From: Euglena gracilis
Lineage: Eukaryota
Assembly (NCBI GenBank): GCA_039621445.1
Contig: CP154954.1
Span: 10,249,521 to 10,313,520 of the forward strand
DNA length: 64,000 bases
Direction of reading: 5' to 3'
In this document: positions 118-45,100 of the stretch, in pieces
Numbering within the stretch: position 1 is the first letter of the stretch
Layout: each line of letters opens with the position of its first letter
The notes under the pieces: generated by a model
Told to the model about the DNA's origin: nothing
Databases searched by the model: none
The model's input: only the letters and a program-made list of their open reading frames with translations
Made by a program: the position numbers and the translations under genes

Positions 118-3100
118 GCCGATGCAAACGGTGCCGTGCGACTCGTCGGCGGCCTCCCGGTGGCCACTTTCGACCTCTGGAACTCGCCGGTGCAGGTCAA
201 GGCGGCCGACCTGCGGGGCTGCACACTGGCGCCCCGCCGCCCGCAAACCCGTCGCCCGCGCCGGGCGACGTCAGGCGCGCGACGGGTCACATGTGTACGT
301 ACATGAATGGCCCGAGTGATAATGCCGTGCCACTTCGGGTATTCGGGATAACGGAATCACCGTGGAGTGGCACATGTGTGTCCCGGTTAAACGTCTCGGC
401 TGTTCGCCAGGAACCGTTCGCACATCTTTGTGTCAGTCGCTGTCTCTTTGCAAGTAAAGCACAATGCCCCAATGCAATTGCACGCTGGACGCTGTAACAC
501 TTGGGGCGGGTATCTAAGATGGCAAATGCCAGCCGTCAGCAACCGCCAGTCAAACCTGTGAAAGGCTCTGCAGTTCATCAGTTTCTGTTTCCTGCTGCAC
601 TGGAGAACTTCTTTGTTTGTTTGTTGACCCTGGTGACCCGGGTTGGGCTCTACCTCTCCCTTTGGGGGCCGGTCCTTGTGGAGACCCGAAACAAAAGGCA
701 ACTGTTTTGAATGCTTTTCTGGGCTTTTGTTTTTCTAATTGTCCTGAAAACAGCAAATTCTGCGGTCCGCATCCCACCCCCTGCTGAATGCCACCGTCGG
801 GAAGGGTTGTGTTTTTCCTTCGGCATGATTTCTTTGGGATCCCAAAGTAAATCCGAAGAGTGTGCCTCCAAAGCTCTTGCACGCCCCAACGGGTTGCTGG
901 TGTTGGGAATGCCCCCCCCCCCGCGGATCAAATAGAGCAGAAAAAGAGAATATAAAAAAAACAGTTTATTGAAATAATTGAATTAATTTTAAATAATTTA
1001 AAATTGCTAAAATGAATTTAAACAAGTTGCAAATAATAACTAATAAATAAATTTAAATAAAAATAAAATGGAAAAAAAATTAAAATTAAAAATAAAGTTG
1101 AAAAGTTGAAGTTAAGTCAAAACCATCAATGACCAAGTTCTTCACAAATCAAAAAAGGGGGTGGGCAGCCCTTGCAGTGGGCGGCGGGGCGGGACCGATC
1201 CAGCGCACGACGGCGGGCACGCAGGGCGTCGTCCGGGCGGCCGGCGCAGCGCTGCTGCTGACCGCCTCGTTCGCCGTCGCCACCGCCACCGCGCGCCACG
1301 TGTTGCAGTACGCGGCCGCCTCGTCCGGCCACTGCCACCGCTGGGCTACTGTGGCTGGCCGTGTTCTGAGTAGGACCCCACAGTTTCCGGGGGGGGGGGG
1401 GTACCCCAAAAATATGAAAAATGAAATGGCAATTAAAAAAAATGAATTTTAAAGAATTTGAAATTGAACTTAAAGTGAAGAATAATAACGCCCACCTGTG
1501 AAATAAAAGTTCAATAAAAAAAACTCCCACCTGGGGGTCGTTAAGCAGCGCCCTGTTAAGGACCACCCTGCATTGAATGGAAGATTTGTTGAACCCAGCC
1601 AATCAGTTGAGCCCACCACCCGACGCTCAGCGCCAGCTGGCCTGTTTCGACCTATCCCCTTTTCGGGTGACTGCCGGGTCCGCCCCTATCGATTCCTGGG
1701 AGACATGGGAATTCCGGCCGCCCTGTGGATGATGCACGGAGGTCTCCTCCGCCACGTCCGCTCATTTTTTGGGCTTTTGATTCAAAACCACAAACTTGAA
1801 ACTGTACTTTTGGAGCCGTTGTGAACCCAAATTTCTGTGGTTCCTACCCCCTCCCGGGAAACTGTCACCTAAACCCCGTACTCTATGACCTGTCACCTCA
1901 GGGACCTGTTACACAACAAAAGCCCCCCTGCCTCCCCGTGGGAAACTGTAACCTGACAAGTAAGCGAGCACAGAGGCAGGCATGCCAGACTCCCCCCAGG
2001 CAACCAAGTGAGGGTGGCTCTGCCACCAGTCCTTCCCATTGATCCCTGTCCCGCCCTGAACGCAGGCAGTAGCGTTGCAAACTTTGGTTTACCCTCAAAG
2101 TGGCTATTTCTTTTGACCCAAAAGGCGCCAAAGGCAAAATTTGACTCCCAAAGTGTCCGCCCTACCAGAGTGGCCGCTTTGTTGTCTAAAGTATCAACAG
2201 ATCAGTCCACTTTTAGTTTTAAAATTGCTTAATTTTTTATGATTCTGAATCAAGTCTTCTGGAGATCAAAATTTTTGTGGACGCCAAAGTTTTTTTTTGC
2301 GGGATTTGTGGACACCAAAAGGAAGGCTGCCGCTCATTTGTGTACACCACGAAATTTTTTGTGGTTCATCTGTGAACACCCAAAAAAAATGTTGTGGTTC
2401 ACACGCCTTTTGTGAACCACATTAAATGGATGTCTGGTCTGTGTGAATTGGGAACCGAGGTGCACCGCGGTGAGCGGTGGCATGTCCCCGAGCCAGTGTC
2501 TGTCTCGATGGTGATGACGGGGGTGAAGCTTGACGGCCCCCAGGGCACCATAGGGCTCTCTCCAAGCTAACCACCCAAAATGTTGGTCCGATGCCAAATA
2601 CTGTCATGCCCGAGAACCTGTCAGGGTCCTGCCCGGGAAATTGTCAGGGTCCCCGGTACCGGCCAATCTGTCAGGTTACAATTTCCTGGGGGGGGTCAAT
2701 CATGGGAGCAGGCCGTATTTTAGTCGGGTGCCGACCCCACCCCGGGGGGGGGGGTGCTTGCCTGGGCAGGCACTCCAAGGCACTCCAAATCCGACCCCCC
2801 GGGGGGGGGGGGGTAGGGCACACAGCCAAAAGTGCCCTAGCACAACCCCGGCGCCGAATGCGCCGGGGAGCAAAAAAATGGCCTATTTTGAAAGGAATGT
2901 GCCTGCCTCCCTCACAGGCACTCCGGACCCCCCCTCCCCCCCGGGGTTGGTAAAAAAAACAGCCTGCATGGGAGGCTATTTCTCCTGGGCAACGTTGGCA
3001 AAAAAGGCAGTGCAGTTTGAAGATGAACATGAGCACACACTTTGCTTTTTTTGTAATTTTAGCTCGCGGTGCTCTGCGTCAGACCCCCGCCTGGGCATCG

Positions 3101-42103: not shown

Positions 42104-45100
42104 ATGCGGGACCTCCGGCCGCTGACGCACTCCTCGGTGCCCACGAAGCCGTCCAGGTGCGGCCTGCGTGGCTCCCTCAGCCGGCAGGGTTCCAGGCCTT
42201 TTGCGATGTGTGCTCTCGTGCGTATTTAAAGCACTTCTTCTTTTCGGAAAAGCTTGCCTCATCATAGGTGCAGAGTGTATATTTGGAGCATTGTTCTTAC
42301 TCTTAACCCCACTCACTTTAGTTGCTTTTCTCTCTCATTCTTCTTTGTGTTGAAAGAAACGACCAATCCAGGGATTTTACACAAACATCATATTTCCTGC
42401 TTTTTTCTGTTTCTGGCTGCCTCGTTTCTCTCCGCCTCCCCAACATTGTGTGGATACGAATCATTTGAACAGGTTTGATTTGAAGTAGAGACCAAAATTT
42501 GGGGCAGATACCTGCTTGCTGGGGGGGGGTGAAAAGTGTTCCATTGTAGAGATCTTGCGCTCAAATGTGACGCTTTTGGGTGAAGGTTGGGGGGGGGGCA
42601 GCAGGTGGGGGATGGGCATCACCACACAAACTGGGCCAGACAAGCGAGGTTAGCACCGGCCAGAAACAGACAAGAACCAGAGTGGCCGGCCCCCCTGGGG
42701 GCAGTGACTGATTGGGTTTCCAAGAAGAAAAGTGACTGCCTGGTTTTGGGAAGAGTGGGGTTGGCTCCCCCTCCCCAGGGCCCCAAATGACCCGAAATCC
42801 CGAAAAGCAGTCCCCAGAACCCCCGCCCCCCAAACCCCCGAAGGGTTGGGTGGGGATGCCAACTCCCCATGTCCTAAGAAAAAAGCCCTCTGCGCCGGCG
42901 TCTTCCTTCCGTGGGGGTCTCTCGCACAGCGCCGGCCCACACCGTCTCGGTGGCCTGGGCCGGTCCAGCCGCCCGGCCTCCGCGGACCCCGACGCCCACT
43001 CCATCGCAGGTGGCGGCGCGCGATGCGGGTTGCCTGCGGGCGTTGCCTGCCGTGGTTGCTTTATTTTCCCTTCTTGGTTTGGGGTCAGCGTGTCTGGGGA
43101 TGTGATGGTGGAAATGGACACGTCTGGTTCCGGCAGGTCCGGATTTCACAGTTTCAATTGCGAACACGTGTGCACGCGCACCCCGCGCATTCTTTTCGCC
43201 CGTGTAAAGCGTATGCACGAACATGGACGCAAGCCAGGTGTCTGAGAAGGAATAAAAACTGAAAAGTGTGTGCTGGTGTGGACTTTTTTTGTTATGTTAT
43301 TATTAAATGACAATGATGTTTACCATGCTTCTTGTTCTCGGGAGACGTACCAAAACGATGGTGTTCTCTTTCCGTCTCTTCAGTTTTGAAGTCGGACATT
43401 CTTGCACTGCAGAATCGCATTGACCTTCTCGGTGTGTCGCAGAGTGTGAGAGTAATTCACAAGTAATGTATCCTACATTTTATCATCCCCACTGTGCTTA
43501 CGTTCGTTTGAAGATGATTCGGTTTGTTTGGCTGTCTTCGGGTGACAAACGAGTGGGAGGCAAACACCAACTGAGGAGTGTTTCCATTCATGCATCGTCG
43601 CACAGATGGCTGCTTCTCGCCGGTGTCTTTGCCCTCCGGCCCTGCACGGCTTGTACCCCCACCCCAGGCTGCCTCCACTGCCTCCGCTGCATCTCAGGCG
43701 CAGGGCCCGGCAAGTCCGCCACCACGTTCGCCACCTTCGGCATGCAGCAGCAGGAACGCTTCCTGTTCACCGTCAGCAACGCCAGCACAGGTGCATTTTC
43801 GCTCCCATTGCACCCGCCGAAATGCGGGCCCAAAACCAACGACACTTCGCGCATCTGGTCAGGAAACACCAGGGTCGTTTCCCACGGGAACGCAGCAAAT
43901 GACATTACATAACCATGGCGCCTACAGTGTCGAACGGTGGGGCTTTTCTCTGGGCTCCAGAAACCAGTGCAACTGCCAGCCGCGCTGTCGGTAATGAGTT
44001 GGGCTTGTTTTGACGAACCCCTTCAACCAGGGTTTAGGCTAGGAGTGCTGGTTTCCTTCTCGTCATGTTTTCAATTTTTCAGAGTTGGCTCAAACCCTGG
44101 CATTTTCCAGTCTGTGGGAGAAGCACACGTATCGTTATTCCCCCATTCCAGGCGACAATCTGCCGGTCACGAAGATGCGGCTGCTGGAGCAACTCGTGGC
44201 CAAAATCGGAGAGCAGGCTAGGTTTTCAACGAGGCCGACCCCAAATGCGGGGGGGGGGGGGTGCCTGGGCCCTCCCCCCGTTCACCAAGACACCCCAAGG
44301 CACCCAGACCCGGCCCCCCCCCAGGCCCCAGGGGGAATCGCCAAAGGCGCATGGGCACTCGGCCAATGCACTCCCGCACCGAAGGCATCGAAACCCCAGA
44401 ACCCCATTTTGGGCCGCAGCCAGGCAGCCACCGACCACCCAGCAGCGGGGGGTGAGGGTGGGGGTAGTGCCTGCCGCAGGCACTTCAACACCCTCTCCCC
44501 CCCCGGGGGGGAGGGTGGTCAATCCCAGCCTGTCGCGGAGCTGTGCACCGTGCTGGGCCGCCTCGGCGCCAGGACGGGGCTGTTGGCGGAGGAGGACACG
44601 CCCCCGACGCCCCCCTCGGCCGGGGAGAGGCCCGCCGCTGGTGCCCCTCCCCGGCCCCGCAGTGCCTGGCGAGCGCCAGTTTTACGCCGGAACTGAATAG
44701 TGCCGGTGAATAAAGTCGACAATTTAATGTCAACAATTTGATGATTTAATGTCAACGATTATTGCTCGTGGTTAGTCCAAAAATTGGCGGTTTTTTTGAT
44801 ATAAAAAAAACCGTGTGTTTTTTTTAAAAAATGCAACAGAATTCCAAACAACTGATTTCAAAGGGGGTCGGCAAAATACCACCAAAGCGATCTGCACCGT
44901 AGGCGCCGGAAAATTTCTCTGGCCTTTTTTCCGCATTTTCGGTCAAATTTCCTTCGGGTTCCAGAGTGATTGACCCCCCCCCCCCAGGGGGATAGTGGTT
45001 TTCCGAAAAAAGTGGGTGACTGGTTTTTGGAAGAGTGGAAGTGACCCCCCCGTCCCCCCAAGGGTCGGTAAAAAAATTGTAAACCCCCCAAGAAGTGCAC

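Follow-up and report, generated by a model that had tools for sequence, protein, structure and literature searches.

Nuclear genes of euglenids contain nonconventional introns, which have been described by Milanowski et al. in 2014 and 2016 (PMC3935182, PMC4770533) and by Nomura et al. in 2025 (PMC12501133). A genome-wide survey combined with knock-in mutagenesis resulted in the code 5′-N3CDG-/-CH′GN5-6|Rexon-3′, in which the donor spacer is fixed at 3 nt, the acceptor spacer tolerates 5-6 nt, a purine is preferred behind the junction and pairing is required (PMC12501133). This strict code applies to 61.2% of the introns in E. agilis, and the knock-ins showed that the tested intron is subject to sequence constraints beyond pairing (PMC12501133). 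Earlier work had described pairing of +4..+6 with −8..−6 together with Y|R...Y|R borders (PMC4770533, PMC3935182) and a downstream exon that begins with a purine (PMC4770533). The introns are excised as circular RNA, after the conventional introns and probably without the spliceosome (cited in PMC11282704 and PMC12501133). A MITE-like origin (MITE, miniature inverted-repeat transposable element) has been proposed since 2014 and is still called unclear in the 2025 literature. For gapC intron 4 of E. agilis ACOI 323, which was gained within one species and whose direct repeats of eight nucleotides exceed those of other introns in length, double-strand-break repair is favoured (PMC4770533). Here, we analysed a window of 64,000 nucleotides of Euglena gracilis (contig CP154954.1, positions 10,249,521 to 10,313,520), in which a first-pass annotation had listed eight non-GT-AG introns as an age series that obeys one stem-defined register. 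We conclude that these features are very probably nonconventional introns of Euglena nuclear genes and thus members of the known class.

The splice register and its controls

The claimed introns are distributed over three genes of the window. The ComB-like gene (2-phosphosulpholactate-phosphatase-like, PF04029; 145-5345) was assigned by its match to P0011, a transcript-derived protein of 245 aa with the source name EG_transcript_21163 that carries PF04029 and was found at 97% in a search with this gene. The exons of the window and P0011 share 174 of 176 residues without gaps, across six nonconventional introns (c1-c6), and the absence of these six introns from the mature mRNA is thereby shown. 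For the other two genes it follows from homology only. The D-3-phosphoglycerate-dehydrogenase-like gene (approximately 17613-28024) aligns to P0003 with 143 identities over 270 residues and a single 1-residue gap, which lies at no junction. The RRM + RS-domain gene (gene d; 30602-35690) matches P0004 (source name GGOE01027318) at 203 of 250 residues, with gaps confined to the RS repeats. The source names EG_transcript_21163 and GGOE01027318 of the best protein matches are in keeping with a euglenid host.

To the eight introns of the first-pass annotation, with c1 corrected from 211-1179 to 228-1196, we added seven others (c2-c5, d-i1, d-i2 and d-i7). All 15 are anchored by proteins except 44211-44537, which was kept in the set though unanchored. 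The combination of a 3-nt spacer, a stem, a 5-6-nt spacer and a following purine was found in 10 of these 15 introns and in none of the eight GT-AG introns of the same genes; none of these controls formed more than three Watson-Crick (WC) pairs in that register. In addition, the designated terminal helix was present in the minimum free energy (MFE) fold of the whole intron in 11 of 13 cases. No GT/GC-AG pair is available at any of the equivalent positions of c1-c6, nor at the other listed nonconventional introns, and the borders of d-i7 read GT...AC. The register that had been noted (3 nt, a stem from +4, 5-6 nt, a purine) is therefore real and is the published code. That all eight introns obey it was overstated: a helix from +4 that ends 5-6 nt before a purine exists in seven of the eight at the coordinates originally given, but not in 23998-25439. 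The conserved register thus holds for 10 of the 15 introns and not for all of them.

The geometry had also been said to hold whatever the triplet. CAG/CTG is the commonest triplet here (6 of 15), as in the published class, and GAG/CTC, GCC/GGC, CAT/ATG and CGA/TTG were indeed seen besides it. However, the knock-in results of PMC12501133 point to constraints beyond pairing, and the example CGG/TTG came from a misplaced junction. The triplets outside the strict code were GAG, GCC (three introns, including the stemless c5), GGG, AGG, CAT and CGA, and such introns tend to have longer stems, mostly of 7-15 bp.

We estimated how often such stems arise by chance. With both positions fixed, 0.0028 of random pairs show a compliant helix of at least 5 WC pairs. 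When in-frame sliding by ±12 nt is allowed, the value rises to 0.30 for at least 5 WC pairs, 0.13 for at least 6 and 0.05 for at least 7. Because sliding raises the chance to 0.30, short stems such as the 5 bp of 23343-23927 are uninformative on their own. The weight is carried by the set as a whole together with the GT-AG control (0 of 8), and not by single short stems.

Target-site duplications and transposon-like elements

The window was scanned for inverted repeats that begin with CA and are flanked by a perfect 8-bp direct repeat. We found four elements with terminal inverted repeats (TIRs) of 6-11 bp and a target-site duplication (TSD) of 8/8, compared to 0.09 expected, and four were reached in none of 100 shuffles. 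Two of them form the cores of introns. The element 19400-19988 (7-bp TIR CAGGGTT, TSD CCGCCGGA, 8/8) is the core of intron 19397-19993 on the plus strand, and the element 31438-31758 (TIR CATACAAT, TSD GTCCCATC, 8/8) is the core of d-i2 (31435-31763, plus strand). The third is a MITE-like element at 19445-19806 (plus strand), which is nested inside intron 19397-19993 and has an 11-bp TIR (CAGGCATTTTT) and the TSD GTCTGGAC (8/8). The fourth, of 1374 bp at 45356-46729 (no strand assigned), has the ends CAGGGC...GCCCTG and the TSD GGGAAACG (8/8), and its flanks are not coding-like; it also contains internal direct repeats at 45802-46072 and 46225-46493 that are 79% identical. Relatives of d-i2 occur in the window at 44863-45050 (72% over 189 nt) and 42678-42758 (79% over 81 nt), including its 3′ terminal ATTGTA.

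Introns 19397-19993 and 31435-31763 each consist of a TIR element plus exactly one copy of the 8-bp TSD, so that removal of N3, the element and N5 restores an uninterrupted frame. After this removal one copy of the 8-mer remains, and the resulting proteins are colinear with P0003 or P0004, respectively. These elements are probably MITE-like transposon insertions, and the sum of 3 and 5 nt would then mirror the length of the duplication and be no accident. With some reserve, and at slightly less than even chances, we propose that the 3-nt and 5-nt register is the RNA image of the 8-bp TSD: the machinery would remove an element plus one copy of its duplication and so heal any exon hit by this CA-ended TIR class, members of which would have been mobile recently. 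The suggestion of recent mobility comes from the four perfect-TSD elements within 64 kb (two exonic, one nested, one in apparently non-coding DNA), one of which belongs to a dispersed family. If true, this proposal would settle the choice between a MITE origin and break repair, which the cited papers still treat as open. Our literature search, which did not cover supplements, returned no paper stating the link 3 + 5 = 8 or naming the repeat family.

Recounting confirmed the repeats reported for 19397-19993 (8/8) and 44211-44537 (6/8). The repeat of 34120-34960 had been called degenerate, and measured 5/8, which becomes 6/8 when a single inserted base is permitted. In eight other stem-bearing introns the identity was 1-3/8, which is the random level; the value of the split intron described below, counted by hand, was 1/8. 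The 6/8 repeat has a null tail of 0.012, and both of its mismatches pair the exonic part of one copy with the intron-internal spacer of the other. It is therefore plausible, as had been proposed, that the intron-internal copy decays with age. The two intermediates and the placement of the mismatches in 44211-44537 speak for it, but the values are bimodal and the series is thin. Among the introns compared, no graded relation between TSD identity and stem strength was seen. Stems with G-U pairs were found in six of the eight introns with 1-3/8 repeats and in one of the four perfect-TSD elements. Of 12 introns, 8 gain stem length from G-U pairs when read on the sense strand, and 2 when read on the antisense strand. 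This pattern fits DNA-level repeats that become RNA-only stems under selection, although the numbers are not significant.

Taken together, we propose that the inverted repeats near both intron ends would pair in the pre-mRNA and draw the splice sites together, and that the cuts would fall 3 nt before the stem begins and 5-6 nt after it ends, in most cases ahead of a purine. A subset of the introns may arise as MITE-like TIR insertions with an 8-bp TSD, and introns lacking a duplication would be older insertions that have retained the RNA stem but lost the intron-internal copy to decay. Excision would occur as circular RNA, as the literature describes.

Junctions, genes and an inverted exon

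Protein alignments agree with six of the eight claimed junctions (3955-5232, 19397-19993, the split intron, 23343-23927, 23998-25439 and 34120-34960), and one, 211-1179, was wrong. P0011 continues as ...KAADLRGCTL|IQRTT..., which places c1 at 228-1196 (equivalent 229-1197, plus strand), an intron of the same length shifted by 17-18 nt. This junction gives 174 of 176 residues without gaps, compared to 169 of 176 for 211-1179. The true site also fits the register better, with N3, a 14-bp helix (GCCCCGCCGCCCGC/GTGGGCGGCGGGGC) that is present in the MFE fold, N6 and G, whereas 211-1179 allows only three WC and two G-U pairs (CGGGG/CCTTG); the triplet CGG/TTG thereby falls away. An alternative first intron at 208-1182 (CTG/CAG) was rejected, as it gave 168 of 176 residues with two gaps.

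All other introns of the ComB-like gene also lie on the plus strand. In c2 (1325-2487, four equivalent positions) N3 is followed by an 8-bp helix (GCCACTGC/GCGGTGGC), N6 and C, while c3 (2538-3081) is a canonical CAG...CTG intron with a 9-bp helix, N5 and G. The 14-15-bp helix of c4 (3110-3549), which has five equivalent positions at the protein level, can be read with N3/N6 before C or N3/N4 before G. No in-register terminal helix was found in c5 (3586-3861, eight equivalent positions at the protein level), which carries a 6-7-nt direct repeat at its junctions (within 3581-3863). For c6 (3955-5232) the proposed junction was borne out by P0011, which reads ...RPNF|DGDIDL...; it has N3, GAGGGAG/CTCCCTC, N5 and A, and thus a non-CDG triplet. 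A pfkB kinase identity of this gene, prompted by a match to a ribokinase in PDB (E 2.4), was dropped since P0011 carries PF04029. Pfam searches with single exons gave only a weak ComB match (E 0.04), and the search of representative proteins returned only low-complexity matches and a 75-aa fragment.

In the dehydrogenase-like gene, the alignment to P0003 requires every one of the junctions of 19397-19993, the split intron, 23343-23927 and 23998-25439. Intron 19397-19993 has nine equivalent junction positions, and its helix (CAGGGTTT/GAACCCTG) comprises seven WC pairs and one G-U pair and is followed by N5|G. Intron 23343-23927 (plus strand), supported by homology, has CAGGC/GCCTG, N5 and A and is not slidable. 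For 23998-25439 (plus strand) the junction given by homology stood, but the register did not: CAG is at +4 and CTG lies 8 nt before the junction, and when it is read with N6, no more than CA/TG can pair until a G-G mismatch is reached. Two alternatives that would fit the spacing were rejected, with an alignment score to P0003 of 672 against 683.

Exon 5 of this gene (21124-21187), which encodes 22 residues of the NAD-binding loop, lies on the minus strand, opposite to the other ten mapped exons. Its inversion cuts both neighbouring introns in two. The preceding GT-AG intron runs from a donor on the plus strand (20072) to an acceptor on the minus strand (21188), and the following nonconventional intron from a 5′ end on the minus strand (21123) to a 3′ end on the plus strand (22182). 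The former end (21114-21123) reads AGG and then CAGGGTT, the latter (22171-22182) AGCTCTG and TTCTT before the exonic G at 22183. CAGGGTT (minus strand, 21120-21114) and AGCTCTG (22171-22177) pair in register over 7 bp, with five WC and two G-U pairs and N5|G. No convincing inverted repeats were found in the flanks of the inverted exon, and the breakpoints were not located. The gene reads TLV at the SRG motif of P0003, whose Arg is a catalytic residue in D-2-hydroxyacid dehydrogenases. When the collection was searched with exon 9, no near-identical protein came up, but only P0003 at 64%, compared to 97% for the ComB-like gene. Taken with the inverted exon and the TLV at the SRG motif, this missing near-identical protein suggests that the gene died recently or that the assembly is wrong at this place. 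Copies of a motif around GGGCAATTGAC(G/A)CCCC, both tandem and inverted, also occur in the first half of the split GT-AG intron (20470-20890).

Among the introns of gene d, all on the plus strand, d-i1 (30653-31380) has N3, a 9-bp helix (AGGGGAGGA/TCCTTCCCT), N7 and C. In its surroundings (30641-31386) we observed an in-frame GT-AG pair, GTGAGC...CCCCAG, which would take out 18 nt more than the junction implied by P0004. This may be an alternative or 'intermediate' intron. The d-i2 intron, which the first-pass annotation had not listed, reads N3/N5 before A according to the P0004 alignment. At 34120-34960 the junction that had been proposed fits P0004 (...RHRDRD|RRRSRERS...), within a low-complexity region. 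Its 12-bp perfect stem is present as described and extends to 14 bp (12 WC and two G-U pairs; CGG...CCG), followed by N6 and G. For d-i7 (35059-35555) the sequence and P0004 indicate CGAGG/CCTTG, N5 and G, and the conventional GT-AG reading hits a stop. Outside these genes, the candidate intron 44211-44537 (plus strand) shows CAGGCT/AGCCTG, N5 and G and is defined by its stem and the 6/8 repeat.

The window has about 50% G+C and is rich in microsatellites, and its exons are short. Long microsatellites are (ATG/ATA)n at 32420-32585, (GT)n with GC interruptions at 22210-22320 and a CA-rich repeat of about 2 kb at approximately 54900-57000.

Alternative explanations and related systems

Several observations weigh against membership in the known class or against the proposed origin from insertions. 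Every junction rests on proteins, and a near-identical transcript-derived protein (174/176) exists only for the ComB-like gene. Five of the 15 introns miss the geometry: c2 (N6, C), c4 (N4|G or N6|C), c5 (no in-register stem), 23998-25439 (N8) and d-i1 (N7|C). The strict CDG/CH′G code holds for only 6 of 15, five with CAG/CTG and one with CGG/CCG, but such a miss does not exclude membership because PMC12501133 itself reports 61.2%. The reading frame of 44211-44537 is open right through the intron. With its junction repeat and missing stem, c5 shows the opposite of pairing kept and TSD lost, and the G-U asymmetry (8 versus 2) is not significant on its own. Neither 19397-19993 nor the nested element nor 45356-46729 has a second copy within the window, self-BLAST of the introns of the first-pass annotation likewise gave no second copy there, and no enrichment was seen for the terminal motifs CAGGCATTTTT and CAGGGTTTT. 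Finally, with an inverted exon and TLV for SRG, the four cited introns of the dehydrogenase-like gene may no longer be spliced.

This last point leads to the alternative that we rate highest, at even chances: 19397-19993, the split intron, 23343-23927 and 23998-25439 would be unspliced relics in a dead or misassembled gene. The strand of exon 5, the replacement of SRG by TLV, the exon 9 search, which retrieved only P0003, and the off-register 3′ spacer of 23998-25439 are what a relic would show, but the gene retains 273 codons without an internal stop or frameshift, and an inversion of this size, about 1-2 kb, could have been introduced by the assembly. Less likely, though it deserves consideration, is that there is no age series at all and that only the 8/8 introns are insertions, while the TSD-less ones never had a duplication and are converted conventional introns or carry stems that evolved in place. 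The bimodal identities (four at 8/8, one at 6/8, one at 5/8 and eight at the random 1-3/8), the conversion between intron types discussed in PMC3935182 and PMC4770533 and the in-frame GT-AG alternative at d-i1 agree with this. The two intermediates do not, as one has a null tail of 0.012 and the other reaches 6/8 with one inserted base; nor does the excess of G-U pairs in the stems of the 1-3/8 introns (six of eight versus one of four), and decay is expected anyway since the intronic TSD halves fall on N positions, which the published code leaves unconstrained.

We consider it improbable that the direct repeats are scars of double-strand-break repair giving rise to new nonconventional introns instead of TSDs. 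Such repair was proposed in PMC4770533 for an intron with eight-nucleotide direct repeats, and three of the four perfect-repeat elements are single in the 64-kb window. However, four separate elements share a repeat length of exactly 8 bp, and the inverted repeats at their ends all begin with CA; one of them sits within an intron and another in apparently non-coding DNA, where splicing need not exist; one is part of a dispersed repeat; and DNA transposons that duplicate 8 bp (Merlin) exist in E. gracilis (PMC8101967). Least probable is that the junctions are artefacts of picking in-frame sites that fit a stem, with nearby conventional sites being truly used. With a freedom of ±12 nt, 30% of random pairs do yield a compliant stem of at least 5 WC pairs, as had happened with 211-1179, and 44211-44537 lies in an uninterrupted open frame. 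This is in contrast to the six of eight junctions that agree with protein alignments with gaps at no junction, to the stem of 14 bp at the corrected 228-1196 and to the lack of such stems in all eight genuine GT-AG introns of these genes. Assignment to the nonconventional introns of Euglena therefore remains our preferred interpretation.

Reading the raw sequence had thus by itself recovered the nonconventional splicing code of Euglena. The phenomenon is already described, and both the seed of the age series (8-nt repeats at a recent intron) and the MITE-like origin are already in print. What the window adds is one junction corrected by 17-18 nt, seven further nonconventional introns with their registers, an exon in inverted orientation, the sign of either a dead gene or an assembly error, and elements with TIRs and 8-bp TSDs that occur as introns, nested in an intron and in apparently non-coding DNA, which bear on the origin of the class.

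As to the elements, the hAT superfamily is one group of transposons that generates 8-bp duplications. Merlin DNA transposons, which likewise make 8-bp duplications, are present in E. gracilis (PMC8101967). The window elements resemble both in their 8-bp duplication, short TIRs and small non-coding bodies, but Merlin TIRs end in 5′-GG (PMC8101967), whereas the window elements begin with CA(G/T). Introner elements and other transposon-derived introns of Micromonas, dinoflagellates and Fritillaria (PMC11282704) are similar in that elements with TIRs and TSDs insert into exons and are removed from the RNA, the duplication making excision exact. Those introns are removed by the spliceosome, in some cases by an adapted one that tolerates non-canonical ends, while the same source describes the euglenid class by structure-defined ends, circular products and a removal possibly independent of the spliceosome (PMC11282704). 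The likeness to gapC intron 4 of E. agilis (PMC4770533) is that of a young nonconventional intron with 8-nt direct repeats, the seed of the proposed age series; the difference is that in the window 8-bp repeats also flank nested and apparently non-coding elements, and that one element belongs to a dispersed repeat. Compared to the published euglenid introns as a whole (PMC12501133, PMC3935182, PMC4770533), we see no difference in kind: the non-GT-AG borders, the stem from +4, the spacers of 3 nt and 5-6 nt, the purine, the mixing with GT-AG introns and the direct repeats at the junctions that make introns 'slidable' are all shared, and the strict code is found in 6 of 15 introns in this small sample compared to 61.2% in E. 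agilis.

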